Below, piece after piece: positions 3,809 to 32,600 of a stretch of 64,000 nt of DNA. The notes beneath the pieces are model-generated. The model was not told where the DNA came from and ran no database searches. It saw only the letters and a list, made by a program, of their open reading frames with translations. The stretch comes from Yuukianura sp. NJ FZ-2021. Its lineage: Eukaryota. Positions within the stretch are counted from its first letter, which is position 1. The number at the start of each line of letters is the position of its first letter. The stretch lies in NCBI GenBank assembly GCA_046563655.1, contig JAJCTO010000009.1, positions 868,001 to 932,000 on the forward strand. Direction: 5' to 3'. The position numbers and the translations under genes are program-made.

Positions 3809-4077
3809 TTTCGTTGTATATGTACACTGCTTCTAAGTTGGTAATCAACTAAACTCACCCACTTGCATGCATTTGCCTTTTGGTAAGTTTGGAGCAAAGT
3901 AATGAAAATGCAGTCAACCTCCCCTCCTAGTTTCCTCCCAACTCTTACAAAAGAATTTGTGTGATAGAGAAGATGGGGGATCTCACAGAGGCAGCCTCGT
4001 GTGGGAAAATTGATGACATCATAATCATTGTCTCGTCAACTCCATCAGTGCACATGTACTGACAGAGTTCATTTCGA

Positions 4078-7559: not shown

Positions 7560-8461
7560 TGCAAGGGTCAATTAGGTCAAAGGGGTCACTTCGAATAAGT
7601 GCCCTACCCGATTGGCCACTTAGCGAAGGAGCGTGGTCACTTGGCGCTAAAAAGGCCAATTGTAGTTGTAGGAATTGAAAGTTTGACCCTTAAGGGGTCC
7701 GTAGATCCGGCAGCAGACCCACTTCGCCACCCTGGGCAGTCAAAGACTACCCGCGTCGGTGGCGCGGAGTGGACGCTGAAGGGACTCCTAATAGATAAGG
7801 GCCCACTTAACTGTACGCCCCACCTCCTTGGGTCAGTCGCAACTGCCCGTGTCGGAGCTGCAAGGCGCACGAAGGGAATTTCGGTGGAGGGAGCCCTAAC
7901 CTTTTGACGGGTGAACGCGTCCAGGAGCCGACAGGCCCTGCACCCTTCCCAGTCCCGGTCCCTTCCCTTTTTATCAATAACTCAATTTTGCATTTTTGTT
8001 ATGTACCTTGGCTGTCGAATGCAGATGACGAAGGGTCCAAGTCTCGCTGAATCTTTCCCTGGCTTAGCTTAGCTCCTTGGCTGGTTGTAGATGAGAGACG
8101 GAAGTGAATCGAACTTTTGAATTTTTACTTTTTATTTGTCTTAAAAGAAATTAGGACTTAAAATTTTAAGGAGAAATTTAACTAAGAAGAAAACTTAATT
8201 TGAAATTCTAACTGAAGGAAATGATCGAATGTCTTCATGCTTGCACCCTATATTTATAGATGTTACTTTTGGTTGCTACCCTGCAATTCTTGACATTGTA
8301 TTTTTTCGCAAAATTTTGGGAAATTCGCAACTTTGTATTTTTATAATCTAAAACCATGTTCAAGCCAACAGCAATCTCAATTGCTGGTGACTTGAATCTG
8401 GTGTCTTCCCATGCACTCTAATGCATCTGCAACTTAGAGCTTAACCTTATTGATCCCATTA

Positions 8462-11061: not shown

Positions 11062-11247
11062 TTATTGATCCCATTAATGCCAACGCCTAAGTCTTTTCTA
11101 TCAAATTTACGACACTTTAAGTTTTTCTACAATTTGAATAAATGTTTGCAACATTTTGAAAACAGCAAAATGAATGAACTAATACAAACCGGTTAAAACC
11201 GGATCTCATTTTAAAACTACCTTCATGCACTTTTCCCAGGTGTAACA

Positions 11248-11260
11248 TCTTTCCCGGTTT
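11248..11260 (-). other. Polypurine tract (imperfect)
   Basis: Minus strand reads AAACCGGGAAAGA immediately before the TGTTACA start of the 3' LTR. Confidence 0.65.
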
Positions 11261-13115: not shown

Positions 13116-13281
13116 CTGAAATCAATTTGATTATTTCGGATTTATATTTTACAAATTTTTATTTAGAACTACGTTCCCTTATAATGTTTGTTACTATAAT
13201 TGAACTACAGTTTTCTCTACTGTTTTCTACGTGTGTAACAGGGACTACAGTGAATTTTTCTTTTAACAAGTTAGGATCCCC

Positions 13282-14160
13282 TTAATGTAGGAACCGATTA
13301 CTTCTAGGTCGGAGTTCGTAGTCTCCCCGGGATTTAAGTCTGATGTGGTACATCAATTCCTCTCGAATTGATCTACCATATCGACGATAACCCTCAAGCG
13401 TTTTTAACAATAGCCGAAATGAGGATTTTGCATCGCATTGAAGCAAATCAATGCAAATGATGTCTTTATATTTGAAATAGTAGCTCGGAGGATAAATTTG
13501 AAACCGAAGGCAAATGTTTTCGATATCCCGGGTAGCTAATTGTAAAAAGAAATCGCTCCGAACTCCGATCTGGCTCTGGGTCCGATCTCCCGATTTTTCA
13601 ATAAACTCCAAAACTGGAAATAATTTTCCTTCCGGGAAAACCTCATTGCCGCTATTGCCCAAAATTATTGGCCGTAAATCGAAGGTTCGCCGAGTGCGGC
13701 ATATCGTCGGGATAACGAGAAGGTTGAAGCGGACTTTCCTCATCCAAGCCGTCTCGGCAAAAGTTGCGCGCGGAACGTTTTCCTCTCGTCGCGGAAGCCG
13801 TGCGACTTCTTGCAACTCATACTTATCAAATCTTTCACAAATGATTTCAGCGACTTGTTGACCGCGCTTAATAATTCGGTTAGTATAATCATGAGAATAA
13901 AGGATAATCTCGATTGGTCCGCGCTGGTCCCGTTCAATTAAGTCCATTATTACGTTAATTAAATTTCCGAGTTCGCTGGATGGAACTATACGACCGTAAG
14001 TTCCTTCCGGGAGGTCAACTTCAATAAAGGTTCGAATTACTGCTGTTCCCTTGGCCGCTAAAACAGTATCAGCTGGACATAGAAACACAAATCCTGGAAG
14101 AATTCCAGAACTTGGTCGGAGTGGCAATGCAATGCTGGCACACCGTTTGAATCGCAACAT
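13282..14160 (-). CDS. Accessory protein: degenerate trimeric dUTPase-like N-terminal domain plus an unknown C-terminal domain (292 aa)
   Basis: LPEGTYGRIVPSS, LIERDQRGPIEIIL and IKRGQQVAEIICER correspond to dUTPase motifs 2-4. Motif 1 (AGYDL) and the motif 3 Asp/Tyr are altered; motif 5 (RGxGGFGS) is absent. Confidence 0.78.
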   Translation of the reverse strand: MLRFKRCASIALPLRPSSGILPGFVFLCPADTVLAAKGTAVIRTFIEVDLPEGTYGRIVPSSELGNLINVIMDLIERDQRGPIEIILYSHDYTNRIIKRGQQVAEIICERFDKYELQEVARLPRREENVPRATFAETAWMRKVRFNLLVIPTICRTRRTFDLRPIILGNSGNEVFPEGKLFPVLEFIEKSGDRTQSQIGVRSDFFLQLATRDIENICLRFQIYPPSYYFKYKDIICIDLLQCDAKSSFRLLLKTLEGYRRYGRSIREELMYHIRLKSRGDYELRPRSNRFLH

Positions 14161-14173
14161 AACGCCAATTTAG

Positions 14174-14872
14174 TTATAGAAATTCCCAAAGAGCTATATC
14201 AAGCCACTCGTCCGTTACGCCTAATCCGCGACGCGTGTAGTATCTTCGAGCGCGTTGCCGAGCTCTGCGTTGAGCGGTAGTAAAAGCCGATAAGTAGATA
14301 GGAAGTTCTCGCGCGTAAATTATTTCTAAATGAGTCGCTAAGTCTTCTCTATCTTTTGTATACTTTCGAATTTGTTTTGCTAATGTTTGAAAACGGTATG
14401 GTTTTGGGCGAGGCCCAAGAGGAACAAGTGTACAATAGTCGTGAAAGCTATAATATTCAATCCCGAATTTGCGCAAGATCCGTTCCAACTCTGCGGGAGC
14501 GAAGGTTACAATGGCCGGCCAGTGAAGCTGGAGTGGTTGATTGTAATCCAAAATAAATTGACTTAAGAGAATTGGAAAAACGTTAAGTGGTATTTTTGCC
14601 AAGAATTGTTCTATCTTTGTATGACTGTTGGGGTCAACTGTAAGTATTCCTGGGTAATACGAACGCTGGAGTATTACAATATTACTGAATATTTGATTTT
14701 GTTTGGCTCGAGCCCGTCTTTTCGTTTCCTCTATGTATTTTAACAATTTGGGGAACACGTCGACTACGTTTGTTAAATCGTTGACGCAACAGAACTGGAA
14801 GACTTTGTCCAAAACTAGCTCTGGCAACTCATAAAAGTGAAGGGTTCCAGGCTTCAGCGGGGCCGAGGTCAT
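14174..14872 (-). CDS. Accessory protein with an N-terminal F-box-like motif (232 aa)
   Basis: FYELPELVLDKVFQFCCVNDLTNVVDV fits the LPxEILxxIFxYLxxxDL F-box pattern; intact ORF. Confidence 0.65.
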   Translation of the reverse strand: MTSAPLKPGTLHFYELPELVLDKVFQFCCVNDLTNVVDVFPKLLKYIEETKRRARAKQNQIFSNIVILQRSYYPGILTVDPNSHTKIEQFLAKIPLNVFPILLSQFILDYNQPLQLHWPAIVTFAPAELERILRKFGIEYYSFHDYCTLVPLGPRPKPYRFQTLAKQIRKYTKDREDLATHLEIIYARELPIYLSAFTTAQRRARQRARRYYTRRGLGVTDEWLDIALWEFL

Positions 14873-16008
14873 ACGGACTTGGCGGTGTGACCTGGCAGGT
14901 CAAGAATTCGTCGTGAGCGCTGCTTTACAGCTAGCCAACTCAACAGTTTCCTTTTTGGGGAATTTGCAAGTGCTAACTCAGGAATTTTCTTTGTCTAAAG
15001 ATTTGAATAAAGCGAGATTTCCTTGTCAACCTAAAATTAAAAAGAGCTTCGTCGAACATGATGAATAGTTTTTCAATTTGATATTGAATATTAATTAATT
15101 ATGTGGCTGGTATGCCAAAACACGTCATGACGACCAGGTTAGAGGTCAAGGTCCTTGCTCTCATTCGAATTTGGATTTGGAAAATCTAAATAATCATGTG
15201 GCAATGCTGTTTCATTGTAGTGATTTCTAATCCGTGCTTACTAAGAATTCGCATTCTACGACAACCCGTGAAAGGTTCTTTGAATCTACGTAATAAATAC
15301 TCAATCATATTTGTTTACTAAAAATGGAAACATTCTTCTGCTCCGAATTTCAACCATGTTATGCAGGATTAATTGACGTGTACACTTTGGCCAAGGAGTA
15401 ATGGCTTAAGAAACAGGCAACATAGAACGATTCACCAACTGTAACCGTTCTAACTGCTTTGAAGAAATATTCCATGGAGTATTATAATTTTATACGTTAA
15501 GATCTAGTTTATTTTGACATTGTAGTCAAGGCAAGAAACGGTGTTAAACAACATTGTGTCTCCCGCATTTGGTGAAATTCAGTCAGTGCACTTTTGAACC
15601 AATGCTGAACTTTGCATTAGAAGACTGGGTCATTTCACAAAACAAATGTTTACGTTGGAATCGGCGACCGTGACAGAAGAACCTACAATTCTTCATGACA
15701 ATATGTCGATTGAATCTCAGTTTTAGAGGCTGAGGCGCTGGATGCTAACACTCCTCGAAGGCACAAATCCGAATTCATACCATTACTCTAATCAGAACGG
15801 AAGTCATTAACCTGACAGAATTTTCCAATACTGTAATCCGGACCGGAATTAACTGTATGGATTTTACCAAATTGACAAAATTGACAGATATTTTTAGCCT
15901 GTACCATAGGCATTAATAAGTGCAAAGGTCCCGTGGCACTATTAAATTGCAACACTACGTTTTTACTACGTTTTCTTTCACAAGGTAAAACAATGTAAAT
16001 CAACTTCG

Positions 16009-16191
16009 TTAATCATTTTCTTTATCTTCTTCAAGTTCTCTCTCCATAACCTCAATTCTAACAGTCAACTCCTGAATTTTTGCTTGACAGAAACAAAGTC
16101 TAGCGGTCTTATTTCGCCTGCGCTTGGCCAGTCGTATGGCGGCTAACATGAGAGCTCGTCGTCGCTTCCTAAGCTCGCGCTCTAAGTCCAT
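16009..16191 (-). CDS. Small basic/coiled-coil (bZIP-like) protein, 60 aa
   Basis: Basic stretch RKRRR...KRRRNK followed by a heptad-like IQELTVRIEVMERELEE; TTCTGTTTTAG|ATG acceptor directly at the start. Confidence 0.4.
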   Translation of the reverse strand: MDLERELRKRRRALMLAAIRLAKRRRNKTARLCFCQAKIQELTVRIEVMERELEEDKEND

Positions 16192-16330
16192 CTAAAACAG
16201 AATAGTTACACTAACAATTTCATTGTTGATTTAAAATTACAGGGCACAATTCAGTGTACACCTGATCAAAATTTATAATTCTACAATTCTCGACTACTAC
16301 TACAGTTCATATGAACATCTTTAGTCACTT

Positions 16331-18574
16331 TTAGACATAAGTTTCAACCGTAGTTTCTGACGTTGGATCAAGTTTGGGCTGGAAGCTTTTAAGGACGCGA
16401 GTTTCAGCATGACTCATTGTGAGTCGTAAAGGCATTCCTTCTGGGACTAAAAATTTCTTTGATTCTCCAATTCCCACTTCCAAATTAACTTCTGCAGATG
16501 CTTTGGGAATTTTAACTTTGGAGGCTCCGTCCTTAATCTCGGTGGCAGGCTTTACATCGGCTCCTTCTCTCTTTTTCTCTGGGGGAACGTTGAACTCGTT
16601 CTTTCTTTGCTCTGAGCAGATTCGATAAAGGTAAATATACCATACGAGAAGAACAAGTAGCAGTAGGAAAAACAAAATTCCAATTATGACAATGTTTGTG
16701 GTGTGATGGGCTTCCGAGCTTTGTGCTGCGACTCCTCTAATTCGGTCCATCAATCCGAGTCCTATGACTGGGCCGATTCCGTTGGTACAGCATTGTTTGT
16801 ACATCATGAATCCCAGAATGACGCTCAAAGCTATGTTCCACACTATCAGCATGGTATCTGTAGTGGGAGCAATGACGTGAATTAAATTTGGTACTACCAA
16901 TTGTTTAATTCTGCTGACTTCTGTCAAATTTAGGCGGGGTGAACCTAGGTCCCAAGTTTCATTGAAAACTGCATGGAGGTGGGGAAAAGTAACTGGTTCA
17001 CCTCGATTGTTGGCTTTTAGCATAACATCAATTTTTGACATGACGGTAGGAATTATAATATGGACTGTGGGAAAGTTTACGAGGTCGTCCGGGCAAGGAT
17101 ATGGAGGTCGAATTGGGGATCTTCCTGGAATTTTTACTGAGCAATCACAGCTTAATTTCACCTGAAGGCTTCCCACGCCTTCCGTCGGCGGACCCACGGA
17201 AAAGCTTTTGCTTTCACCACAATCTATTTTGGTGCCTTCAACTTTTCCAGTTAGAATAAAAGTATCATAGCTTAATTGGGTGACCGTTAATTCGTTGTTA
17301 CCCAACACACACTCAAAAATGCATACATCATTTAGTTCTCGAACGCTTGAACCTTTTAGCAGATGTTTGACGCAAAGGAAACCGACCATTGGATTGCTGT
17401 TCGTTTGAGGTACAAGACAGAGTCCGGAATGAGGCTGACATTGGTGCAGCTGAGTTCCCTGGATGGTGATGATGTTGTTAGCGGCAACAGCTACGTAAGT
17501 GGGTGCGTGCTGGATCATACAAATGCTTCCTTTGAAGCCAAATGGAATGTTGACCATCTCGAATAGCTTCCAATTTTCTTCAATTCGTCGAATAGGAATT
17601 TTAACCCGAAAAATTACTCTTCCTTCCGGAGTGAAGGTGCAGTCCGCTATTCGTAATTTATAGTATTTGGAAACGTCTTCTGCTGAAATGGCCAAGGTGT
17701 AACCATCATTTCTAATTTTTCGGTTGATGTTTCGTAAGTCTTTGGTGAGTCGTTGAGGATTAACGGCGAGCAAGGGAATTGTGTGGCTGCGACAATGGGA
17801 TTGAAGATCAGTGAACTGCATAATTTCGGCAATTGAATTCAGATGAAAATATGTTTGCATGAAACCTCTCTGGAACGTGCTGACTTCTCGTGACAATGCG
17901 TTCACCTGTCTAGCGATTTCGGTTTCTTCAGTGATGGTTTCATTCATTTCTTGGCTTAGTGATTCTAAGCTGCTATGGATTCGGCTAACAATTCGAGAAA
18001 CGTTGCCACGAAACAGTTCGTAACTTTCGTTGATGGTCATGACGTTTTGGTTGTTGGCCACCACTGAACCTTTCAAGGTTTCCAAGAACTTTTTAACTTC
18101 AACTTCATTTGAAAAGAGGCCCTTCATGTCTCTTTTGCTGACAAAGCCGCAACAGAATGAATAAAAATCGGAAACAAGATTGAGAGGATTGAGACTTTCT
18201 AAATCAAGAGAACGCTGTCCTCTGGCCAGGAACTCTCGTGCTGTTCCGGAGGATGGATCATGAAGGATGTCTTTCAAAATGTTTCTTAAAGTCTGGCTAA
18301 CATGATTAACCATATCGCGAATTGTGATCTGAAAACTGCATCCATCCGCGCTTGTTTCACAAATTTTGGAACGAAATAAATTTTGTGGGATTTCCGCAAA
18401 GGTTACATTTAAATCGTAGATGAGAGGAACAGTTGCCGTGTAAAGCTCCGCGTCCGTGATTTCTCGAACGAAGGCTCCAGAGGTGACTCGAACTTGAGTC
18501 GGAGTAATTGAGTATTTCTGGGAAGTGGTAATACTCGCAAAAGCCGCTACAATCAGTGCGACCTCGAGCTTCAT
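16331..18574 (-). CDS. env: Envelope glycoprotein (fusion protein, probably of the baculovirus-F/errantivirus type), 747 aa
   Basis: N-terminal signal peptide, RGQR/S furin-like site followed by LNLVSDFYSFCCG, heptad-rich region, Cys-rich ectodomain with N-glycosylation sequons, two C-terminal hydrophobic segments; lies directly downstream of the integrase. Confidence 0.85.
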   Translation of the reverse strand: MKLEVALIVAAFASITTSQKYSITPTQVRVTSGAFVREITDAELYTATVPLIYDLNVTFAEIPQNLFRSKICETSADGCSFQITIRDMVNHVSQTLRNILKDILHDPSSGTAREFLARGQRSLDLESLNPLNLVSDFYSFCCGFVSKRDMKGLFSNEVEVKKFLETLKGSVVANNQNVMTINESYELFRGNVSRIVSRIHSSLESLSQEMNETITEETEIARQVNALSREVSTFQRGFMQTYFHLNSIAEIMQFTDLQSHCRSHTIPLLAVNPQRLTKDLRNINRKIRNDGYTLAISAEDVSKYYKLRIADCTFTPEGRVIFRVKIPIRRIEENWKLFEMVNIPFGFKGSICMIQHAPTYVAVAANNIITIQGTQLHQCQPHSGLCLVPQTNSNPMVGFLCVKHLLKGSSVRELNDVCIFECVLGNNELTVTQLSYDTFILTGKVEGTKIDCGESKSFSVGPPTEGVGSLQVKLSCDCSVKIPGRSPIRPPYPCPDDLVNFPTVHIIIPTVMSKIDVMLKANNRGEPVTFPHLHAVFNETWDLGSPRLNLTEVSRIKQLVVPNLIHVIAPTTDTMLIVWNIALSVILGFMMYKQCCTNGIGPVIGLGLMDRIRGVAAQSSEAHHTTNIVIIGILFFLLLLVLLVWYIYLYRICSEQRKNEFNVPPEKKREGADVKPATEIKDGASKVKIPKASAEVNLEVGIGESKKFLVPEGMPLRLTMSHAETRVLKSFQPKLDPTSETTVETYV

Positions 18575-18630
18575 ATCTATATTACAACCTGAATTAATTT
18601 CTGTTCCATTCGATTTCCCTTTTAGAATAA

Positions 18631-21600
18631 CTATGAGTCTATTCCAAACCTAACAGGTTTCTTGACTTCTCTTCCAGCCCTAGTTCTAACAACATTTTCA
18701 AGTTTATCTTTTTCAATCTCCTCGTCTTCAGTTGACGATGCATTTTCACTACTTTCACTTTCAGATTCAGAGCCTAAGCTCACTTTATCTACAGTAGGTT
18801 CTTCAAACTCAAATTCTAACAGATCATCCGGAATCAACTTATCCGAAGGATCTGCTTCTGGGGTTTCCGTTATCTTTACCACTTCCATAGGAAGCTTTCC
18901 CGGTTTAGAATCTGCCCGTCCCGGGTCAGACAAACACAGCTTGTGACAAAGGTGGGTCATACCTTCACTGTCAATAAATTTCTTTAAATTAGAAATATGA
19001 ACGCGAATCGGATCTGAGTCATCTTGTTGCTTATGAGGCTTGCATTTGTAAGACAGAGCAGAGTTCTTTTGAACAATAACATAAGGACCGCGGTAACGGA
19101 AACACAATTTCCGTGACCTGCCAGGGTCCACCTTGGTCACTTTGACCAAAACCAAATCACCAATTTCAAATTCATCAAGGAGACGCTTGGCATCGCAGGA
19201 CTTGGCCTGACGAGCCTGCGCTCTTTCAATGCCAAGTTTGGCTAAATCTCTAGCTTCCTGCATTTTGCGTATGCGAGTGGGAATGTCGTCGTTGGATTGT
19301 ACAGTATCCCAGACAAGATCCAACGGATGGTTCGGGTGGCGACCGAACATTATGTAAAAACCGGAAAAACCAGTGCTTTCTTTGTGTTCCGCTGTATTTA
19401 GGCTGAAAACGGCAGACCCTAAATACTTGTCCCAATCTCGCTGAGACACGGAAGTGTAATTCGTTAAAACTTCTTCAATACTTCGGTTCTGGCGCTCACA
19501 GAGCCCGTTAGTTTGACTATGGTACGGACTGGAAAAGACGTTAATAATCCCAAGGGATTTGTGAAACTGTTTGAAAAAGTCAGACGTAAAAATTGAAGCA
19601 TTGTCGCTGAGAAGAGTTTTTGGTAGTGCATGAGTCTGAAAAATGTCAGTCAAGAAATCTAACATGACTTTAGTAGTTTGCTTTTTGATAGCCCGGGCGA
19701 AAACAAATTTAGAAAGAAATTCTACAGCAACGACAATGAATTTGTTACCTCGCTTTGACGATGGCAGCGGTCCAATGACATCTAAACTCATTCGATCGAA
19801 CATTTGACCTACGGAAATAGGGCACAATTTCCCCAAAGGTTTCGTATTTCTACTGCGCCGAAGCTGACACGTTTTGCAACAACGGACATAATTCACGACG
19901 ATCTTAGGCATTTTGAAAAAGAAGACACTGCGACGAACGCGCTCCAGAGTCCGCTCTACTCCCATGTGACCAGAATGAATGTCGTCATGGAAACGTGGCA
20001 GTATCTCAGGAATTGAAAGATGAGGAATTACGGGTAAAAGTTTCCCGGTTTTGATACATTTCCACTTGAGCAATTCATCATCAAGAATAAACTTTTTAGA
20101 GAATTTATGGTGAGGATGTGATTTAAGTTTTTGGATAATAAATTTCAATTTGGAGTCAGCCAATTGATTGCGCTGAAGATCGTCGGTAGAATCGGTAGGA
20201 GTGACAACCGTGGTAAGAAACCAAGGAATCGGAAAGTCATCTTTGAATTCTTGTTCATCGTCGATCGGAAAGCGGGATAGACAATCTGCCTGATAGTGAG
20301 TTTTTCCATTCACATGACGAATCTCGTAGTCTACGTCCTGCAAACGTAAGGCCCATCGAGCTAACCGACTATTTCTGAAATTCCTGCATGTTTTTAAATA
20401 ACAAAGACTATGATGATCGACCGCGATGATCAATGGCCCAAAGCCAATGTATTCACGATATTTTTCTAATCCCCAGACAACACTGAGAGCTTCTTTGTCC
20501 GTTGTGCTATAACGCTCTTCAGCACCCTTCAAAGTTCGACTAGCATACGCAACGACTTCTAATTTCCCGTCTAAATTTCTTTGATTTAAAATTGCCGAGA
20601 TACCTTTGTTAGAAGCATCCGTATGAAGCTCTAATTCAAAGTTTTCATTAAAGTAAGCTAAAATAGGAGCTGTCATAAGTTTACTTTTAAGTGTTTCAAA
20701 CGCTTCCTGACAATCTGAACTCCACTGAAATGGCTTATCTTTCTTTGTGAGGTCGGTGAGTGATTTAGCTACTTGACTATAATTTAAAATGAATCGACGG
20801 TAAAATCCGCATAAACCGAGAAATGTCCTGACTTCACCAACATTCCTAGGCGGAGGCATGAGAGATATCGCTTTTACCTTGGAATCAGAAACTGAAATGC
20901 CTTTGTCAGATATGACGTGACCTAACAACTCCAATTTACTTTTTCCAAAATGGCACTTTGCGGGATTGAAAGTGAGGTTAAATCTTTGAAATTGTTGAAA
21001 AACGTCTTCCAGATGTTCTAAATGAGTTTTGAAGTGCTTGGAGTGAATGCAAAGATCATCTAAATAAGCCTGAGCAAATTTATAAAGTCGCCGACCTAAC
21101 ACCTTCTTAATGACCGAATTGCAAAACGCGGGAGCATTCTTCATTCCGAAACTGACGTATTGATATTCATACGTTCCATTGTGTACTATAAAAGCTGTCT
21201 TTTCCACGTCATCCGGATGGACTTTAAGTTGGAAGTAGGTACAGAGTAGCAGACGCTAAATCCAAGGAAGAGAAAACTTTACATCCGGTAAAAGAAGAAA
21301 GAATCTCGTTAATGACGGGCATTGGATAAGACTGGCTTTTAGTTACATTGTTCAAGCGACGATAGTCAATCACCATTCGAACTTTGTCACTACCTGGACG
21401 TCTAACTAAGCTGACACCTGCACTCCAAGGGCTAGTACTTTCTCGAATTATCCCTGCGTTAAGTAATTTATCCACCTCCTCCTCAATAATGCGTTTTTCA
21501 TGAGGCGCCTTTTTGTAAGGAGCACTGGAAATGGGTGCTGCATCCCCCGTATCAATTTTGAAATATTCATCCTGCACCTTCCCTAACTGATCAAGGTCCC

Positions 21601-22600
21601 ATGCCATGGTATCCCCGTATTTAAGAATCAAATCTTTTAGTTGTTGCTGTTCTGCCATGGACAAATCAGGATTAATGATAATCTGATCAATATTTTCCTT
21701 CGTGGATTTAAACCTAGCTTGGCGAATATTGTCCTCTGCTTCAACCTCGCGGATTTGAACACGCGTCAAATTTCCTACGTGAACACCAGCATAAACAGTA
21801 GTTGGAACCGGCCTTGGGTTGTCGATTGGTAGTTCAAAACAGCCTTCTGGAATATGAGCTAAATATGGAATGCAGAGCCCAAGTCGATCTAAAAGATGCT
21901 GATTTGGTTCGAATGACAAGGTTCCTGTAATAGGAGTGACTGGCTTCACTAGAACTTTGGTTGTAGAAAATGGAGGCAAAATTTCCTCAGAAATGGTAAT
22001 GACCTTGGGGTATGATGGGTTCGATTTATTAGAACCTTGCCGCTAAAGGTGATGCAGATGAAGGGGTAGTCCTAAGCTGTCGTTGGAAAATAATTTGAAA
22101 GGTCGTGGAACTCTCATGCCGACGTATGAATAACTTCCGTATCCCTTTGGAGCGGAATTGAAACTAAGGGTGAGAAGATTTTTGGAATTGAAATCGTTTC
22201 CCAAAATTATATCAAAGAGACATTTCTCGATAACTAAAAAGGAATGACATAAAACTTGATCAGAAGATTTTGAGAAAACTAATGACTTTTTGACAGAACC
22301 TAAGATTGGGATTTTAGCCTGATTGGCGGATAATAGTTTAAGACCAGGAAGTTGAGGAACCAACTCGTGAGCTTGAACGTGCTGAGCCATAATTATACTA
22401 ACTGGACTTCCTGTATCAATTAATCCAGTAATACGACGTCGTTTATCGCCATCAACGAAATAGATTGTGGTAACCACGTTACCAAAATTTAATTCAGTAA
22501 AAGAATCTGAAGCTTCTACTGCATGACAACTATGTACTACGGAGGAATTAAGATTCAAATCGACGTCAGACCCTCCTACTGGCGTCGCTCCTCTTTTACC
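18631..22600 (-). pseudogene. pol: pol polyprotein (protease, RT, RNase H, integrase), interrupted in this copy
   Basis: LIDTGS (PR); SPWSA, RMVIDYRRLN, FGMKNAPA, YLDD (RT); HTDAS, YSTTDKEAL (RH); HDDIHSGHMG...CKTC, SLDVIGP, SDNAS, NGLCER, RGPY (IN). In-frame TAG at 22043-22045 and an apparent 10-bp insertion frameshift at about 21240-21250. Overlaps the end of gag in the -1 frame. Confidence 0.93.
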
Positions 22601-24165
22601 GCAACTTTCTTTTCCAACTGAGCTTCCGGTTTGGGTTTGTGCGGGCAGTCCTGAGTAGGATGAGCGCTTGACTTGCAGATTTGACAATTCATCTGCCGAG
22701 GACCTGGAGATTTCCGTTGAAGCTGCGGACATTGAGGCTTCATGTGATTCTCGGAGCCACACTGGTAACACGCACGGCGAGTTGCGATTTGTTCGCGATG
22801 AGGGCAGGTTCTACCGATGTGCATGGTAGACTCGCAGATACTACATCTGAGCCGTGCCGGAGTACGCAAAATCTTCTCTTCCGGGCATTGCCTGGTGGGG
22901 TGAGAGCTTGACCCACAGCTGTAACAATGAGCAACTTGTTGCGGAATTGGCTCAAATCCAACCGCATGAGCAGTGTGACGAGGTTGATAAGAGCGAGTGT
23001 AGACTGCCGTTGTACGGCTTCCTTGGCCACGGAGAATTCCAGATCCTTGACCGCTTCCCCGAGAATGCTGAGTTCCCGGTACTCGTCCTCGAGAAGCAGG
23101 AATAGTAGAACTCCGCTGATAACCCATTTGAGAAGTTTGAACCGTCATTGACTGCTTGTCATTACCTGATTCGTCGCTAATTGCCAGTGGAAAAATAGTC
23201 TGAATAGCCTCTTCTAATTCTCTATTTTGCATTAACGTTGTTTTACGTTTGAAGCTATAATCGAAGTTTTCTTTCCGAATTAATTCACTCAGAACCTCCT
23301 TAGTAGTCGATGGACTTTTCTGGTGGATGACCCAAGCTAACTCCGGGGTCAATCCTTTCAACAAATACAAAATCCGCTCATCTTCTTTAATCGAAGACCC
23401 TTGACTAGCCTCAAGCTGGTCACAGAGCTTCATCACGTTATAGTAATAGTCTTTAACAGTTTCATTTTTGTCCTTCTTGCGAGATGCTAATTTGTCCTCT
23501 AACGCGTCTTTAGTCAAACGAGATTTAAACTCGTCCCGAAAATTTGTTTCCAAGTCCGTCCAAGTCAAAACTTTAACGTCTCCTTGAGCGTTTTTGTTCA
23601 AAGGATTACGTTTCCATTCATTTTTAAATGTTGATAGCCACATCTTCGCAGGCCCAATTAAGTAAAGGCCAAAATGCTCAATTTTAGTTGCGTCATCCCA
23701 ATGTTGGGAGACAGCAATTGCTTTAAATTTGTCCAAAAATTCATTTGCCTTGGCACCCCGTTGACCTTTAAAGGTCAGTTCACCCGGAGGTGTCCAAATC
23801 GAAATCGCGCTAACCACAGGGGTTGAAGTAGCAGCCATGGCTGATTCACTTGAAATAACTTCAATTCGAGGAATTGGAACGTTAATTGCCGCTAATTCCT
23901 CTTCAGAGGAAGCGATGCTAAGCCAAGAAGCAACAGATCCGACCGCTAATATATCAGGAGTTCCTACAGACTCCGATCTTCCTACAAGTATTTTCCCTAC
24001 AATGCCTTCTGCTGTCTGTTCAGTGCTAACTTCTATCTCAACAGTACTGGGTGATCTTGATTTGCTTCTTTCTATTCTGATCTCTCTTTCTAAAACTTCT
24101 AAATCTTCTGGACCAAATTCTGGCGGTTTGTTTTGTAGACGACGACTGGATTTTTCTTCGCTCAT
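22576..24165 (-). CDS. gag: Gag with four CCHC zinc knuckles (529 aa)
   Basis: Retrotransposon capsid-like region (FLDKF...W...LIGPAKMW...TWTDLETNFRDEF...ETVKDY). Knuckles CYSCGSSSHPTRQC, CSICESTMHIGRTC, CYQCGSENHMKPQC and CQICKSSAHPTQDC. Confidence 0.92.
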   Translation of the reverse strand: MSEEKSSRRLQNKPPEFGPEDLEVLEREIRIERSKSRSPSTVEIEVSTEQTAEGIVGKILVGRSESVGTPDILAVGSVASWLSIASSEEELAAINVPIPRIEVISSESAMAATSTPVVSAISIWTPPGELTFKGQRGAKANEFLDKFKAIAVSQHWDDATKIEHFGLYLIGPAKMWLSTFKNEWKRNPLNKNAQGDVKVLTWTDLETNFRDEFKSRLTKDALEDKLASRKKDKNETVKDYYYNVMKLCDQLEASQGSSIKEDERILYLLKGLTPELAWVIHQKSPSTTKEVLSELIRKENFDYSFKRKTTLMQNRELEEAIQTIFPLAISDESGNDKQSMTVQTSQMGYQRSSTIPASRGRVPGTQHSRGSGQGSGILRGQGSRTTAVYTRSYQPRHTAHAVGFEPIPQQVAHCYSCGSSSHPTRQCPEEKILRTPARLRCSICESTMHIGRTCPHREQIATRRACYQCGSENHMKPQCPQLQRKSPGPRQMNCQICKSSAHPTQDCPHKPKPEAQLEKKVAVKEERRQ

Positions 24166-24347
24166 GAGCTATTACAGCCTCAAGGCAATCTATTAAAAGT
24201 TAAAAAGGGTTGAAAACTTTTTGGAATTGGAACAATCGAAGTTCATTCAATCCCATCAATTCATGAAATTCATTTCATTTACGATGATGTGGTAAAGCCA
24301 ATCAATTGTGCTCAACTATGACACTTTTAATGGAGAATTAACGTATC

Positions 24348-25687
24348 TCACAAGAGGTATAAAATAATAAATAGAGCTGCACAAAGAATCCACCATTGCG
24401 GCTGTGCCTCGGCACTTCCAGCCACAGTATTTTCGACACAAGGAATTTTTAGAAATTCCATCAATGGTTCAGAAGAAAGCTTCACAAAGTCCAAGGAAAA
24501 AGTTAGAACTTCATTGCCATTAAGTAAGCTAAAATTCATAGCATTTCTTCCAATTTGTGTGACAGGGGTCGTGAACTGTGCCAATTGCTGAGTGACCTTC
24601 GCGTCCCAACAAGATTCGAATAACTCGCGCTGGTGGTGATAGTAACACCGCCATCCGCTTGCTGTTTGCAAATAGAGTCGTCGCTCAATTTCCATGGCTC
24701 CAATGATGCTTGCATTGGCTGCTAAATTGAGCTTTGACATGCTACGCGGGTAGCCTGTATCCAAAGTTGCGCCAAAAATGTACTTAAAATATTCCCCTTC
24801 AGAGAAAATGTAAGTCATTCGATCGTATTGAAACACAAAGTCAGGTTTTAAATGTTCTGGGAAATATTGAAAATATTTGTGATTATAAATTCGCTGGGAG
24901 AGAAAAACTTCTCCGTTTTCGATTCGATAATGATAGTTGTCCGCGAAAAGGTAGATTTCGTTATAAATTTGGCAATAGTTCGGTAATTTGTTTGGCATAA
25001 GCTCTTTTCCAAATTGTCATCATTTGTCCAACTACTTTTTCGAATTGGCGCGTATTTAGGTGCATTTTTATAGAGAAATTGTAGAGCTCGTTTATCCTCG
25101 TCACTGATCCGAATTGAATAGTCATACTCGCGGTAAAATGCTGTCATAATCGCATCACGGACGTCGGAATGACGTAGTCCAATAGCATGTCCGAATTCGT
25201 GTAATAGTACAGAAAAGAAACTAACTCCCTTTCCATTTTTACCAACGATCCAATTTTCTGCAAGGTCAAAGTGTATATCGCCTCCAAGCAGACTTTCACT
25301 TGGAAAGAAAGCGTGAGCCAACACTCCACCTCTTCCATCAAATGGAGCAGAATCATTGTGGCTTAACTTTTCAAAACTGATTCGAATGTCCGCTTGCGCT
25401 GGTTTCTCGAGTTCTTCGAACTTGAGGTTGGACGCTGCTTGCCACTTAGCAATTGCCAGTCGAGCTTCAAGCTTAACAATGCTAAGATTTAGATGTAATG
25501 GGACGTTAGCAATGGACCAAGTAATGTTCCGTTTGATCCAAGGGGTATTTGAAGGAATGTATCTTTTGATACGTGGTGGATTCTTGCTACGCTCATTATC
25601 GTGACAGTGAATGGTAGTGGGATTTTCCCACTTAATGTAACTACAGTAACCTGAAACAATAAATAGTAGTAGCACGAACAGACGCAT
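24348..25687 (-). CDS. Matrix metalloproteinase (M10A matrixin) with a hemopexin-like domain and C-terminal hydrophobic anchor; split by one frameshift near 24970
   Basis: Signal peptide, RIKR furin site, W.KRNITWSI, ADIRISF, H.D..PFDGRGGVLAHAFFP, GDIHFD.AE.W, HEFGHAIGLRHS zinc motif, AIM Met-turn. The second ORF (24348-24998) has hemopexin-like EIYLF, TYIFSEGEYFKY, GYPRSM and ends WWILCAALFIILYLL. Confidence 0.9.
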
Positions 25688-27170
25688 GGTTGAGCTGGGA
25701 GTTGAGGGAGTTTTCGTATTCCTTTCTCTAGGAAGTTAGGTTTTGCCAGTGAGTGGAATTATCAAGGGACTTCCGGGAGGTCAATTCCCTGTTATTCTTT
25801 CAAACAAATACAATGAGTGCCACAATCCCATTCTGGGATGTGCAGATAACAATAAAACTTCTCAAATTATATACAATTTTAAATTTAATAAGATTTCAGC
25901 AACATGAAGGGATGCAGCCCACACACGGCAATGCAATTCCCATGCACAAGTTACTAGAAGCAGCCCACCCATGGCAATGCTTCAAATAAAATCCCTAGGC
26001 AATTTCAAAGTAGTTAGCTCGTATCTCCCCAGTTCATGGCCCTCTGGAGAAACGTGTCACCACTCACGGCAAAAAAATTGTTATTCATTGACACGGGATT
26101 TGTTTCTCCAGGAAAAAGGGTCTGTGACCCGGCCAGACCACAAAACAGGGAGCTTAATCCTGGTGCATTGATTCTGACCTGAATTTAAATAACGCGGCCT
26201 TCATGAACTGTAGCAAACCCCTTTTTATGAAATAATTTTGGAAAGAGCTACCTCTCCTGACCTGTTTAACATCTTTACTAAATTGTGAGTCCTCGCTGGA
26301 TCCTTAGCTAGCTCACGCCGTTGAAAGAGATACCTACTATTGAAATTCCTTCATAAATTGACTTAATTATGCGTTAAGATTAATAGATTCGGCAGAGCCA
26401 TTGCTACTCTAAACCCTAACCGTGACCTAGTGCTAGCTTGATCTCACAAATGAGCCTACCTCACTCCGAAGTTTCCGCCTGAGGGCCTATTTCAGTATCC
26501 ACTTCGATTCGGATTATTTGTTGAAGGGGCAGCTGGTAGGCATCACGCCCAAATACCAGCCCCGTCATTCTAGACAGTTGCCTAAGGTCACCCCGACCTT
26601 GACCTAACCTTTCGGATCTAAGTCTCCTTCGTAAACGCGGCATCACCTTTGCGCAAATCCTTGCTACACCTAATATTACATTCTAGCCAGTCCGCGCTAA
26701 GAATGGGATCATTTCCTAAAGCTATGAGTGGCGCCTTATAACCTAATATGACCTATCTGTAAGCTATTTTATGTACAAGGAATACCTGAGGTAGAACCGG
26801 GTGTTGAGCCCAAGTGGAGCCTATTTCTGACCTGGGTCGACCGACTACTTAACCCGTATGAACCATGCTTAACTATCGTACTTAACCTAAAATTCTTAGT
26901 AAACTTCAATTCACTAAGTGCCAAAGAGACAAAGAGAAAGCTGAACGCCATTCTATCCTGCGTGTACGCATAATTTTAAACGGAACGCTTCATTTTTAGA
27001 CAACCTCACTATTTCAAAATTCAAACAGAATATGATCATGGGGTTCAATTATCGACGTACCAACTTGGGTTGTCATTGAAACTTATTGTGACGGAAACAA
27101 AAGTAAAGACGACAACGACGTCAAAACTGACATCGTTAATTTCCATGTCACAGGGTAAATTTGAATGAAA

Positions 27171-27716
27171 TTATTGATAATGATAAATCCCAGAGTGAGC
27201 CTCTGGGTTATGACGATGATTAGTCAAACAATTGTGTGTGATTATTTGATTGTTGGAATCGACTTTGCGTTCCAAGCATACGAGAACATCAATCCTATTA
27301 TTACATAAATGCTTCCAAACGAGCTTTTCGACTTCCACCCAGCACCCGCGCCCACAGCCAGTGCCTATTAAGGGCATCTGAACAATGGCCTTTGTATTTT
27401 TAGCTAATTCGCCTAACTTCTCAAGACTTTTATCTAACGAATAATAGGAAATAGGAACAGGATGCCAAGGATCGCGTTGAGCGAACAAATTAACAACCTG
27501 AAGCCCTTGACCAATTGGAACAGTCTGTATATCTCCTAGGCTGGCCTTCCAGCCTTCAGCTCTAAAATGCAATTCTACAAGCGGGTATCGCCATGATAAT
27601 TGACTGCAAAATCCCTTACCCCAGGCTCCGTAATTATTAGTGACGTGTGCAATTATTAAGGGTCTCTGATCTGATTGCGGGAGAGTCCCGTCACAAGTCC
27701 TAAACAGAATACTCAT
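27171..27716 (-). CDS. Macrodomain protein (Poa1p/TARG1-like Appr-1-p processing family)
   Basis: IIAHVTNNYGAWGKGF, SLGDIQ, VVNLFAQ and VQMPLIGTGCGRGCW are macrodomain motifs. The likely ATG is at 27716 (the ORF is open from 27818). Confidence 0.85.
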   Translation of the reverse strand: MSILFRTCDGTLPQSDQRPLIIAHVTNNYGAWGKGFCSQLSWRYPLVELHFRAEGWKASLGDIQTVPIGQGLQVVNLFAQRDPWHPVPISYYSLDKSLEKLGELAKNTKAIVQMPLIGTGCGRGCWVEVEKLVWKHLCNNRIDVLVCLERKVDSNNQIITHNCLTNHRHNPEAHSGIYHYQ

Positions 27717-28046
27717 AATGAATGTAAAATGGAGATGCCTAACTACATCAATTGGATCCAGAAATTGTTCCAAAAGCGAAGGGCGCAGTTTATCCCAAAC
27801 AAAATAGAGACAAGACAAGAAAGAGTTGGAATGTATCGAAGTGATCGACTTAATGTCAGATTTGTTTTAACTATGGTTTAGCTTAATTTAGAATTGAATG
27901 AATTTTAATTTAGAAAGTTTGTGTAACTTTAAAAATTTTTAGAACTTAATTGCAAAAAAAAAATGAATTTAAACTAAAGGTCAAGGATCACTGACCTGAC
28001 CTGCGCTGATTTTAAGTCTACGTGCTTAAAGGGATGCTTAAATGGA

Positions 28047-28156
28047 TGAGGATGACGAAGGTTTTCATGAGGTTTACATGAGGATGAAGTGAGGATTACT
28101 TGAGGATTACCGGAGGATTACAGGAGGATTACTGGAGGATGACCGGAGGATTACTG
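28047..28156. repeat. Short tandem repeat (about 11-bp GGAGGATTACY units) in the retroelement 5' UTR
   Basis: gaggattactt gaggattaccg gaggattacag gaggattactg gaggatgaccg gaggattact, plus degenerate upstream units. Confidence 0.8.
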
Positions 28157-28539
28157 CCCGTATCCAAAATTTAACTTGAATTTACGAGTTAAATTTTAAT
28201 TATTTAGTTATTATATTAATTTTAAAAATATTTTCAGCTTCTCTAAACAGAGTACGCGTTTCTAATGCATGGCCCTACAATTTAGTGCAAGAAAGTCAAA
28301 TTTTTCGTTCTGCGCATGCGTCGCGTAGACCTTGGGCATGTGCTGGTAATGAGTGGAAAATGGTGCCTAGAACCTGCCTAACTACTCCTGCTCGTTTGGA
28401 ACACTTATGCAAAATACTTTTTGAATTATGACGATTTTAATTATTCAGAATTTTGAAAGTTCGCTTAAAACTGAATCAAAATGTTTTGAAGACAAGTTAC
28501 GTAATGCTTCATGACCGAAATTTCGTTTTGACCATATAA

Positions 28540-28557
28540 CCCCTGCATCGGGCACCA
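28540..28557 (-). other. tRNA primer binding site
   Basis: TGGTGCCCGATGCAGGGG, 2 nt downstream of the CA end of the 5' LTR; resembles Lys-type PBS sequences, but the tRNA is not assigned with confidence. Confidence 0.85.
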
Positions 28558-28559
28558 TT

Positions 28560-29632
28560 TGTAAGGGTCAATTAGGTCAAAGGGGTCACTTCGAATAAGT
28601 GCCCTACCCGATTGGCCACTTAGCGAAGGAGCGTGGTCACTTGGCGCTAAAAAGGCCAATTGTAGTTGTAGGAATTGAAAGTTTGACCCTTAAGGGGTCC
28701 GTAGATCCGGCAGCAGACCCACTTCGCCACCCTGGGCAGTCAAAGACTACCCGCGTCGGTGGCGCGGAGTGGACGCTGAAGGGACTCCTAATAGATAAGG
28801 GCCCACTTAACTGTACGCCCCACCTCCTTGGGTCAGTCGCAACTGCCCGTGTCGGAGCTGCAAGGCGCACGAAGGGAATTTCGGTGGAGGGAGCCCTAAC
28901 CTTTTGACGGGTGAACGCGTCCAGGAGCCGACAGGCCCTGCACCCTTCCCAGTCCCGGTCCCTTCCCTTTTTATCAATAACTCAATTTTGCATTTTTGTT
29001 ATGTACCTTGGCTGTCGAATGCAGATGACGAAGGGTCCAAGTCTCGCTGAATCTTTCCCTGGCTTAGCTTAGCTCCTTGGCTGGTTGTAGATGAGAGACG
29101 GAAGTGAATCGAACTTTTGAATTTTTACTTTTTATTTGTCTTAAAAGAAATTAGGACTTAAAATTTTAAGGAGAAATTTAACTAAGAAGAAAACTTAATT
29201 TGAAATTCTAACTGAAGGAAATGATCGAATGTCTTCATGCTTGCACCCTATATTTATAGATGTTACTTTTGGTTGCTACCCTGCAATTCTTGACATTGTA
29301 TTTTTTCGCAAAATTTTGGGAAATTCGCAACTTTGTATTTTTATAATCTAAAACCATGTTCAAGCCAACAGCAATCTCAATTGCTGGTGACTTGAATCTG
29401 GTGTCTTCCCATGCACTCTAATGCATCTGCAACTTAGAGCTTAACCTTATTGATCCCATTAATGCCAACGCCAAAGTCTTTTCTATCAAATTTACGACAC
29501 TTTAAGTTTTTCTACAATTTGAATAAATGTTTGCAACATTTTGAAAACAGCAAAATGAATGAACTAATACAAACCGGTTAAAACCGGATCTCATTTTAAA
29601 ACTACCTTCATGCACTTTTCCCAGGTGTAACA
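28560..29632 (-). repeat. 5' LTR, 1073 bp
   Basis: Minus strand TGTTACA...CTTACA; adjacent to the PBS; near-identical to the 3' LTR. Confidence 0.96.
29225..29258 (-). promoter_or_regulatory. LTR core promoter: TATA box and Inr-like start
   Basis: TATAAATA at 29258-29251, ACATTC Inr-like motif about 29 nt downstream, and AATAAA at 29136-29131, giving the expected U3-R-U5 order. Confidence 0.6.
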
Positions 29633-32600
29633 ATATTTGCAAAGCATCCAGTAATGGGGCTCTCGATACTGGTGTTTACATTTAGAGCCCCATGATTTCA
29701 CTACAGTAAATAGCTATCCCCCCTAAGTTATCTGATGAAGGTTTCTCATCTTGGAGCCCTAACATTAGAGGCTTGGTAGGGTTGTGGGTATTGCTATAAC
29801 TTCAATGTAACCTTTGCATGTATTGTTGGATATGATTTTAGTAAAGCATTTATTCCAAAGCAAATTGTGCTGATATTTGCCATCGTTACCAACTGGGAAC
29901 AAATCCATCAAATATCCCATTGTCATTTTTGAAAACTGCCTACTTTTGATATTAAGTTGCGTTGAGTTACTTAGCATACCTATTCGTAAGAAGTATTTAT
30001 AATGTCAAGCAACTAATTAGTCTCATAGGCAAGATAGAGCTACATATTTGCAAAGCATCCAGTAATGGGGCTCTCGATACTGGTGTTTACATTTAGAGCC
30101 CCATGATTTCACTACAGTAAATAGCTATCCCCCTAAGTTATCTGATGAAGGTTTCTCATCTTCGAGCCCTAACATTAGAGGCTTGGTAGGGTTGTGGGTA
30201 TTGCTATAACTTCAATGTAACCTTTGCATGTATTGTTGGATATGATTTTAGTAAAGCATTTATTCCAAAGCAAATTGTGCTGATATTTGCCATCGTTACC
30301 AACTGGGAACAAATCCATCAAATATCCCATTGTCATTTTTGAAAACTGCCTACTTTTGATATTAAGTTGCGTTGAGTTACTTAGCATACCTATTCGTAAG
30401 AAGTATTTATAATGTCAAGCAACTAATTAGTCTCATAGGCAAGATAGAGCTACATATTTGCAAAGCATCCAGTAATGGGGCTCTCGATAATGGTGTTTAC
30501 ATTTAGAGCCCCATGATTTCACTACAGTAAATAGCTATCCCCCCTAAGTTATCTGATGAAGGTTTCTCATCTTCGAGCCCTAACATTAGAGGCTTGGTAG
30601 GGTTGTGGGTATTGCTATAACTTCAATGTAACCTTTGCATGTATTGTTGGATATGATTTTAGTAAAGCATTTATTCCAAAGCAAATTGTGCTGATATTTG
30701 CCATCGTTACCAACTGGGAACAAATCCATCAAATATCCCAAGGTGGGTAAACAATAATTAAAGCTACATCAGGTTGTCCAGTAACTGGAACTTTTAAAAT
30801 TTGTTTGAACAAAAAATTTTGACTTTCCATGGTAATTTTTTGCATGTGATGCAAATGGGATTGGTGCAGAATTGGTGCAGAAATTTGTTTGGAGTAAGAT
30901 TTTTGGAAACCATGAGGTACTGGATAACCTCCTGTAGATTAATTGCAAATTGGTTGCTATAGCAACCTTGAAATATCCCATTGTCATTTTTGAAAACTGC
31001 CTACTTTTGATATTAAGTTGCGTTGAGTTACTTAGCATACCTATTCGTAAGAAGTATTTATAATGTCAAGCAACTAATTAGTCTCATAGGCAAGATAGAG
31101 CTACATATTTGCAAAGCATCCAGTAATGGGGCTCTCGATACTGGTGTTTACATTTAGAGCCCCATGATTTCACTACAGTAAATAGCTATCCCCCCTAAGT
31201 TATCTGATGAAGGTTTCTCATCTTCGAGCCCTAACATTAGAGGCTTGGTAGGGTTGTGGGTATTGCTATAACTTCAATGTAACCTTTGCATGTATTGTTG
31301 GATATGATTTTAGTAAAGCATTTATTCCAAAGCAAATTGTGCTGATATTTGCCATCGTTACCAACTGGGAACAAATCCATCAAATATCCCATTGTCATTT
31401 TTGAAAAGTGCCTACTTTTGATATTAAGTTGCGTTGAGTTACTTAGCATACCTATTCGTAAGAAGTATTTATAATGTCAAGCAACTAATTAGTCTCATAG
31501 GCAAGATAGACCTACATATTTGCAAAGCATCCAGTAATGGGGCTCTCGATACTGGTGTTTACATTTAGAGCCCCATGATTTCACTACAGTAAATAGCTAT
31601 CCCCCTAAGTTATCTGATGAAGGTTTCTCATCTTGGAGCCCTAACATTAGAGGCTTGGTAGGGTTGTGGGTATTGCTATAACTTCAATGTAACCTTTGCA
31701 TGTATTGTTGGATATGATTTTAGTAAAGCATTTATTCCAAAGCAAATTGTGCTGATATTTGCCATCGTTACCAACTGGGAACAAATCCATCAAATATCCC
31801 ATTGTCATTTTTGAAAACTGCCTACTTTTGATATTAAGTTGCGTTGAGTTACTTAGCATACCTATTCGTAAGAAGTATTTATAATGTCAAGCAACTAATT
31901 AGTCTCATAGGCAAGATAGAGCTACATATTTGCAAAGCATCCAGTAATGGGGCTCTCGATACTGGTGTTTACATTTAGAGCCCCATGATTTCACTACAGT
32001 AAATAGCTATCCCCCTAAGTTATCTGATGAAGGTTTCTCATCTTCGAGCCCTAACATTAGAGGCTTGGTAGGGTTGTGGGTATTGCTATAACTTCAATGT
32101 AACCTTTGCATGTATTGTTGGATATGATTTTAGTAAAGCATTTATTCCAAAGCAAATTGTGCTGATATTTGCCATCGTTACCAACTGGGAACAAATCCAT
32201 CAAATATCCCAAGGTGGGTAAACAATAATTAAAGCTACATCAGGTTGTCCAGTAACTGGAACTTTTAAAATTTGTTTGAACAAAAAATTTTGACTTTCCA
32301 TGGTAATTTTTTGCATGTGATGCAAATGGGATTGGTGCAGAATTGGTGCAGAAATTTGTTTGGAGTAAGATTTTTGGAAACCATGAGGTACTGGATAACC
32401 TCCTGTAGATTAATTGCAAATTGGTTGCTATAGCAACCTTGAAATATCCCATTGTCATTTTTGAAAACTGCCTACTTTTGATATTAAGTTGCGTTGAGTT
32501 ACTTAGCATACCTATTCGTAAGAAGTATTTATAATGTCAAGCAACTAATTAGTCTCATAGGCAAGATAGAGCTACATATTTGCAAAGCATCCAGTAATGG

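Follow-up and report, generated by a model that had tools for sequence, protein, structure and literature searches.

Envelope-bearing Ty3/gypsy elements are described as gag-pol-env elements, and to our knowledge the exit of such elements from producer cells and their entry into the germline are understood only in Drosophila. Among the large DNA viruses of insects, the matrix metalloproteinases (MMPs) of granuloviruses act on basement membrane or tissue. Ty3/gypsy elements with an envelope gene ("errantiviruses") are widespread in metazoans according to the main text of Chary & Hayashi (eLife 2026, PMC13524379), and ORF Hz2V068 of HzNV-2 is reported to have MMP and hemopexin domains (PMC3280521). 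Retrovirus-like elements with added modules, among them dUTPase, DEDDy exonuclease, env and GDSL lipase, have also been described. They include the long terminal repeat (LTR) elements Juno, Vesta and TelKA of bdelloid rotifers, for which dUTPase and DEDDy modules are reported (Rodriguez et al., PMC5408684), and the planarian LTR retrotransposon Burro, which has further added open reading frames (ORFs) (Arkhipova & Yushenova, PMC6431247). Here we describe a 64,000-nucleotide stretch of DNA from Yuukianura sp. NJ FZ-2021 (contig JAJCTO010000009.1, positions 868,001 to 932,000; hereafter the window, in whose positions all coordinates are given). In this window an animal-type MMP gene stands ahead of gag, carried as cargo by a young Ty3/gypsy provirus that is errantivirus-like and bears an envelope gene.

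The provirus occupies 29632-7560, lies with all its genes on the minus strand, and measured 19.5 kb before the later insertion of a long interspersed nuclear element (LINE). Its 5' LTR (28560-29632, 1,073 bp) begins with TGTTAC and ends with CTTACA. The 3' LTR (7560-11247) is split into two pieces, 7560-8461 and 11062-11247, by a fragment of a non-LTR retrotransposon (8462-11061, minus strand) that has RVT_1, RNase_H and zf-RVT domains and a 15-bp target duplication, and that entered the 3' LTR after the provirus had integrated. The two LTRs are at least 99.7% identical, with about two to three differing positions; their alignment includes an 899-column run with one mismatch near its end, and the second LTR piece, of 186 nt, is 99% identical. 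A primer-binding site starting with TGG (28540-28557) is found two bases past the 5' LTR, and a short polypurine tract (11248-11255) immediately precedes the 3' LTR. When compared with the satellite monomer into which the element inserted, a target-site duplication, ATAT, is seen on the right (29633-29636) and on the left (7556-7559), and the uninterrupted monomer, which represents the empty site, reads ...CTACATATTTGCAAAG... A duplication of 4 bp fits the gypsy group. Since ATAT flanks both ends and the empty monomer is available for comparison, the whole 19.5 kb, including the MMP gene, integrated as one unit. Within this unit the gag ATG lies only 183 nt past the MMP stop, and no poly(A) remnant is present between the two. 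The placement of an MMP upstream of gag, as put forward in the original prediction, is borne out, and the LTRs, the primer-binding site, the polypurine tract and the duplicated target site around the gene show that it lies in an LTR element.

The MMP gene itself (25687-24348) is intronless and consists of two ORFs, both open over their full length. The 0-frame ORF extends from 25735 to 24848 (295 codons) with its ATG at 25687, so that the coding part (25687-24848) comprises a putative signal peptide, a mini-propeptide, the furin motif RIKR, the catalytic domain, the hinge and a 52-codon out-of-frame tail. The -1-frame ORF (25016-24348, 222 codons) contains the remainder of the hinge, a hemopexin-like domain from its first to its last Cys, and a hydrophobic tail of the glycosylphosphatidylinositol (GPI) type. 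Pfam Peptidase_M10 matches the 0-frame ORF with an E-value of 4.6e-46 (157 bits against a cut-off of 24), and the closest solved relatives of the catalytic part are MMP-11 (1hv5, 4.3e-33), followed by MMP-20, karilysin and MMP-14. These solved catalytic domains align from residues 42-44, right after RIKR (residues 39-42), the predicted mature N-terminus being Y43. The zinc site HEFGHAIGLRH is found at 163-173 and the Met-turn at M181. In an alignment of 14 sequences (the MMP and 13 homologues), H163, E164, H167, H173 and M181 all fall in invariant columns, as do the structural zinc and calcium ligands H110, D112, H125, H139, D117, G120, D141 and E144. On these sequence features, 25687-24348 is confirmed as encoding an animal-type MMP.

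The N-terminus of the protein, M-R followed by a hydrophobic stretch, is signal-peptide-like as read from the sequence, and is separated from RIKR by a mini-propeptide of about 26 residues. Neither the propeptide sequence nor the 14-sequence alignment shows a PRCGxPD cysteine switch, and the assignment to the catalytic family does not depend on this missing motif. A single Cys, C28 (in IHCHDNE), is found 14 residues ahead of the cleavage site, which in the alignment is approximately the position of the switch Cys in furin-activated MMPs. The original prediction had described an intronless MMP with a signal peptide, furin site, intact HExGHxxGLxH and Met-turn, and a prodomain of only about 25 residues lacking PRCGxPD, and all of this holds. 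Its further proposal of reduced latency control is plausible and was overstated: since C28 is kept near the switch position, latency control may be reduced and perhaps not abolished.

The C-terminal part of the MMP is strongly diverged. The Pfam Hemopexin match is slightly under threshold (E 5.6e-4, 20.2 bits against 21.3), while phmmer against PDB finds the hemopexin domains of MMP-14 (3.1e-5) and MMP-2 (1.2e-3), and a comparison with 17 full-length MMPs in hhalign reaches 75% probability (E 2.5e-5), limited to residues 18-119. When folded by AlphaFold from the single sequence, this part reached a pLDDT of 41; with a 20-row alignment it reached 64, three four-stranded blades scoring 70-88 while the fourth was poorly modelled. 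In Foldseek, every one of the 20 matches listed at E <= 1e-3 is a hemopexin fold. Since the input alignment itself consisted of MMPs, the AlphaFold and Foldseek results lean toward hemopexin. The domain retains both its first and its last Cys. The protein ends with AGSAEAQPQ followed by 15 hydrophobic residues and has no cytoplasmic tail; this fits the pattern of a GPI signal, with small residues (AGSA), a short spacer and a hydrophobic run, and the AlphaFold model has a helix at 208-221. Similar hydrophobic tails end several of the cellular homologues in the alignment. Both the hemopexin-like domain and the hydrophobic C-terminus that had been predicted are recovered, the former as far as its blades 1-3, which phmmer, hhalign, the fold model and Foldseek support.

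The two MMP ORFs are joined by one -1 frame change, which must lie between 25016 and about 24985. The single frameshift of the original prediction stands in kind, whereas its site, given there as near 24970, does not. A contig assembled independently from the reads of one sequencing run (X1, see below) covers 24357-25475 with one substitution and no gap, and has the same frame break. At the frame change the gene contains the 10-mer TTGGAAAAGA (25003-25012, minus strand) with an in-phase G GAA AAG, which falls within the window of about 30 nt in the hinge where the -1 change must happen. The same 10-mer recurs in the same phase at 22608-22617 (minus strand), in the -1 overlap between gag and the protease ORF, 37 nt ahead of the gag stop. 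The element has no -1 frame transitions other than these two. In the gag-pro overlap, which is 235 nt long, only G GAA AAG and G GUA AAA fit the pattern N NNA AAN in phase. The 7-mer inside the 10-mer occurs just four times in the 17.3-kb interior, and a word of at least 10 nt in common with the gag-pro overlap was found in only 5 of 2,413 control windows of the element, a chance of about 0.2%. A small intron was tried as the cause of the frame change and rejected, since the only GT..AG pair seen by eye in the hinge would give 32 nt, too short for an animal intron.

It is possible, though in our view doubtful, that the -1 shift in the MMP is programmed. If it were, the MMP would be shifted at the very site that the element uses for gag-pro; most of the product would be a short, soluble, furin-activated catalytic form, and a smaller share would be a longer form that includes the hemopexin-like domain and GPI anchor and could be placed on the membranes of producer cells and possibly on particles. 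In the first frame this copy encodes only the soluble catalytic part, the hemopexin-like domain and anchor requiring the -1 shift. However, there is no canonical X XXY YYZ heptamer in phase in either the MMP hinge or the gag-pro overlap, and no stable nested structure in the 74 nt after the MMP site, where the minimum free energy is -3.8 kcal/mol; downstream-structure Z-scores at both shift sites are 0.1 to 1.3, values that refer to nested structures and not to pseudoknots. Nor was a precedent for frameshifting on GGAAAAG found in the papers examined, in which the string is only a primer or a flavivirus 3' element. Since the same copy has other lesions, the frame change could also be one more of them. 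If the shift is real, a retroelement would set two isoforms of a captured matrix protease by its own recoding signal, and the shared motif would represent a -1 frameshift site of a new, non-canonical kind that a single genome employs at two places. The combined proposition, that the MMP functions as an accessory gene in an infectious-type retrovirus-like lineage and that a programmed shift on the 10-mer yields its two isoforms, we regard as unlikely.

The remaining genes of the provirus, read in the direction of transcription, give the order macrodomain ORF, MMP, gag, protease (PR), reverse transcriptase (RT), RNase H (RH) and integrase (IN), env, ORF241, dUTPase and a possible DEDDy-like exonuclease. 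The leader ahead of gag is 4.3 kb long and holds the two extra genes, the first of which, the macrodomain ORF (27171-27866 from stop to stop, first Met at 27716), matches 5e3b in phmmer against PDB at 1.9e-13 and two further chains at about 1e-12, and has library feature matches to Macro clusters at 0.86. In RNA viruses, macrodomains serve to counteract defences based on ADP-ribosylation. No ORF with a recognisable product is present in the 1.4 kb that separate the macrodomain ORF from the MMP. Gag (22576-24165) matches Pfam Retrotrans_gag at 6e-10 and has CCHC knuckles. The protease ORF (22043-22810), in the -1 frame relative to gag, contains LIDTGS and matches Asp_protease_2 below the cut-off, and is followed by RT, in two pieces, RNase H and integrase (18631-22042). 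The Pfam domains of pol thus come after gag in the Ty3/gypsy order PR-RT-RH-IN, and Pol is 33-38% identical to the best library proteins, those with names being arachnid Ty3/gypsy. The env gene (16331-18649) is of the baculovirus-F type (Pfam Baculo_F, 3.3e-8, 33 bits against 24.1) and encodes a C-terminal membrane span. Downstream of it lie ORF241 (14174-14899, 241 codons), which like the macrodomain ORF has no match in Pfam, a stand-alone dUTPase ORF (13282-14169; Pfam dUTPase, 4.4e-14) and a 618-codon ORF (11265-13121) that weakly resembles DEDDy exonucleases of the Rrp6/EXOSC10 kind (PDB 1.3e-3 to 1e-2; Pfam DNA_pol_A_exo1 0.014, below the cut-off).

The provirus is embedded in a long array of a 410-bp satellite (5809-7559 and 29633-64000), whose higher-order period is about 1,471 bp. 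A run of ORFs at 2-3515 (minus strand) includes an Endonuclease_7 domain (7.9e-9) and a sub-threshold match to protein-primed DNA polymerase B (2.9e-4), and may be a Maverick/Polinton-like or viral remnant.

Four coded sequencing runs (X1-X4) were compared with 11300-29400 in 30 bins. X1 and X2 derive from one sample, of organism A, and X3 bears a second organism label, organism B. Contigs from X1 and X2 matched all 30 bins, and the word depth was flat across the interior, at about 120-290, whereas the LTRs stood at 540-1,590. The read-derived contigs tile the interior of the provirus and include one of 6,240 nt besides the one across the MMP. The LTR-matching depth, 5-10 times that of the interior, suggests that solo LTRs or related elements are present elsewhere. 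At 25097 and 25623, all of the X1 and X2 depth differs from the window, and both differences are non-synonymous; at 25097 the reads have an Asp that is near-invariant in MMPs where the window has Glu. This means that the window and the reads represent two slightly different versions of the element with a common frame structure. A variant MMP-gag junction (24220/24325) was also seen at a depth of about 34, compared with about 150. In X3, 5% of the words were found, with 24 of the 30 bins represented at low depth by pieces 95-99% alike; the MMP bins reached only 0.13-0.39, too thin to place the MMP in organism B. Together, the variant junction and the X3 pieces hint at more than one version of the element. 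X4, from the same sample as X1, had nearly no words and diverged pieces in 11 of the 30 bins, and no conclusion was drawn from it.

On the reading that we consider fairly probable, the MMP belongs to the provirus as its cargo and, by analogy with the MMPs of large insect DNA viruses, would help enveloped particles to spread. The MMP would be released from cells in which the element is expressed, or be displayed on their surface, and furin would cut off the mini-propeptide in the secretory pathway, which would leave the enzyme active with little latency. The active MMP could then cut extracellular matrix or surface proteins around the producer cells and so make way for enveloped particles, a role attributed to the MMPs of baculovirus-type viruses. 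The passage from soma to germline across basement membranes, as put forward in the original prediction, is speculative. Expression of the MMP and gag might proceed from unspliced RNA with downstream re-initiation, or from spliced forms.

Several observations weigh against this proposal. The position of the MMP ahead of gag would hinder translation of gag unless splicing or internal initiation occurs. RT is frame-broken within its LDLAS/YFQ motif (21224-21255, minus strand) and an in-frame TAG (22043-22045, minus strand) separates PR from RT; a read contig covering 21140-22794 has no gap and confirms both lesions. Since RT is broken, this copy is non-autonomous despite its near-identical LTRs. 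Blade 4 of the hemopexin-like domain was undetectable by sequence (hhalign) or in the fold model, which could mean decay, and no second MMP-carrying element was found in the single-protein scans of viral contigs (with the MMP and env) or in the metagenome scan. The lesions in RT and between PR and RT, the undetectable blade and the failure of those scans to yield a relative with the same layout also speak for a rival reading, in which the MMP would be a passive, decaying passenger: a host MMP cDNA gained by template switching during reverse transcription that was never useful and is now eroding, the truncated propeptide, degenerate hemopexin domain and frameshift being signs of that erosion. 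For rotifer LTR elements, the extra ORFs are reported to show no clear departure from neutrality (Rodriguez et al., PMC5408684). We nevertheless think a passenger rather unlikely, since all catalytic and metal-binding residues are intact, both frames are fully open, and the frame break falls on the gag-pro shift motif. Furthermore, the signal peptide, furin site, first and last hemopexin Cys and hydrophobic tail have all been retained in a protein with at most 48% identity to known MMPs.

Of 1,205 candidates in a word-indexed search, 142 proteins were matches; the best reached 38-41% identity with 55% or more of the query aligned, and a soft-coral MMP-14-like protein stood at the top. A search for longer proteins gave 28, at most 45% identical, the named ones including octocoral MMP-24 (41%) and springtail MMPs (38-40%). 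An exhaustive search of 1.84 billion representatives at E <= 1e-3 returned 7,950 proteins, none more than 48% identical, and the best full-domain matches were at 46%. The near-identity to a host mRNA that would mark a recent passive retrocopy is thus not seen in the searched libraries; there was also no self-match, so that the host proteome is probably not in them. Judged by these identities, the MMP has not been copied recently from a sampled gene, a statement that holds for sampled genes only, and its distance from every sampled MMP implies that it was acquired long ago or from an unsampled donor.

The donor could have been not the host but a large DNA virus of baculovirus or nudivirus type, as has been proposed for the F-type env. 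Trees were built from the MMP catalytic domain, by FastTree on 180 rows and by mixture models on 62 of these. Four multi-domain proteins and L034 were dropped from the alignment, and nine short rows were dropped and then restored for FastTree; the 62 rows comprise a 57-row clade, from which L017, L033 and P0324 (long branches) and a small number of other rows were removed, and 11 rows that lie outside it. FastTree placed the window MMP in a 26-row group with a cellular clade and the baculovirus-type clade, including 10 baculovirus-type MMPs (support 84), and constraining the window MMP to group with the viral clade cost 2.98 log-likelihood units and was not rejected (approximately unbiased (AU) test, p 0.384). 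The baculovirus-type MMPs likewise lack PRCG, have RxKR in front of the catalytic domain and carry a weak hemopexin-like domain at their C-terminal end, and the env of the provirus is of the Baculo_F type. On the other side, the quick mixture-model tree set the MMP beside the cellular clade (82), and the careful one left it in a polytomy outside both the viral clade (100/97) and the cellular clade (100/99), with no supported sister and no supported grouping with membrane-type MMPs. Identity to viral MMPs is 34-39%, compared with 44-48% to the best cellular ones. When the hemopexin part was searched against the comparison set, matches were obtained for 20 of 165 cellular proteins but for 0 of 20 viral ORFs. 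The hemopexin matches lean toward a cellular rather than a baculoviral origin, and we regard a viral donor as quite improbable.

By phylogeny, the window MMP is an orphan among animal-type MMPs. The comparison with viral MMPs that had been called for in the original prediction sets the gene outside the viral clade and gives it no supported sister. Capture from the host, also proposed there, agrees with the leaning of the hemopexin matches and is not established by a tree that leaves the gene unplaced and accommodates a baculovirus-type grouping. An alignment-based scan of viral contigs found 80 loci, including a clade of 10 contigs of 101-177 kb. At locus L014, a PIF-2 gene (1.9e-196) adjoins a baculovirus-type MMP (2653-4290, plus strand) whose C-terminal domain has a sub-threshold Hemopexin match (9.7e-4); on that match, this domain may also be a degenerate hemopexin fold.

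That the whole arrangement is an artefact, either a chimeric assembly in satellite surroundings that are hard to assemble or a host gene caught between two separate elements, is extremely improbable and close to refuted by the exact junctions, the 4-bp duplication with its matching empty monomer, the correctly placed primer-binding site and polypurine tract, and the read-derived contigs that tile the interior and cross the MMP.

If the MMP is active, retroelements, like the large insect DNA viruses, would recruit host matrix proteases for spread, and the gene would offer a concrete handle on the crossing of tissue barriers, since it encodes an enzyme with standard assays and inhibitors. An MMP has been described for large insect DNA viruses and is apparently new, here ahead of gag, for a retroelement. 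No retroelement-borne MMP was found in targeted literature searches, which for some articles covered titles and abstracts, and a literature search found no report of a macrodomain in an LTR element. The main text of PMC13524379 contains none of the terms metalloprote-, dUTPase, accessory, peptidase or macro, although its supplements may list elements with extra ORFs, and the word metalloprotease does not occur in the available texts of PMC5408684 and PMC6431247.

The provirus resembles the errantiviruses in having LTRs, gag, PR-RT-RH-IN and a gene for an F-type fusion glycoprotein after pol. Unlike them, it carries roughly double the usual amount of coding sequence, with five additional ORFs: the macrodomain ORF and MMP before gag, and ORF241, the dUTPase and the exonuclease-like ORF after env. 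In being a retrovirus-like element with added enzymatic modules it is comparable to Juno, Vesta and TelKA and to Burro; as far as the available parts of their descriptions go, the extra ORFs reported for those elements come after pol or stand, in frame, between gag and pol, whereas two of those in the window provirus stand before gag. The MMP is like those of baculovirus-type viruses and nudiviruses (L002-L016, L076) in that it is virus-borne and intronless, with a signal peptide, a basic cleavage site ahead of the catalytic part and a weak hemopexin-like C-terminal domain; like the baculovirus-type ones, it also lacks the classical cysteine switch. It differs from both in its carrier, which is a retroelement and not a large double-stranded DNA virus, in having no supported sister relation to them, and in its GPI-type hydrophobic tail. 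With furin-activated or GPI-anchored animal MMPs (of the MMP-11, MMP-14 and MMP-17/25 types) it shares RX[K/R]R, the order catalytic domain, hinge, hemopexin, and a hydrophobic C-terminal signal, but unlike them it has neither the three-helix propeptide nor PRCGxPD, its hemopexin domain is strongly diverged, and it is encoded in two frames. With an MMP, a macrodomain, a dUTPase and an exonuclease-like gene added to its gag, pol and env, the provirus looks like an invertebrate "complex retrovirus".

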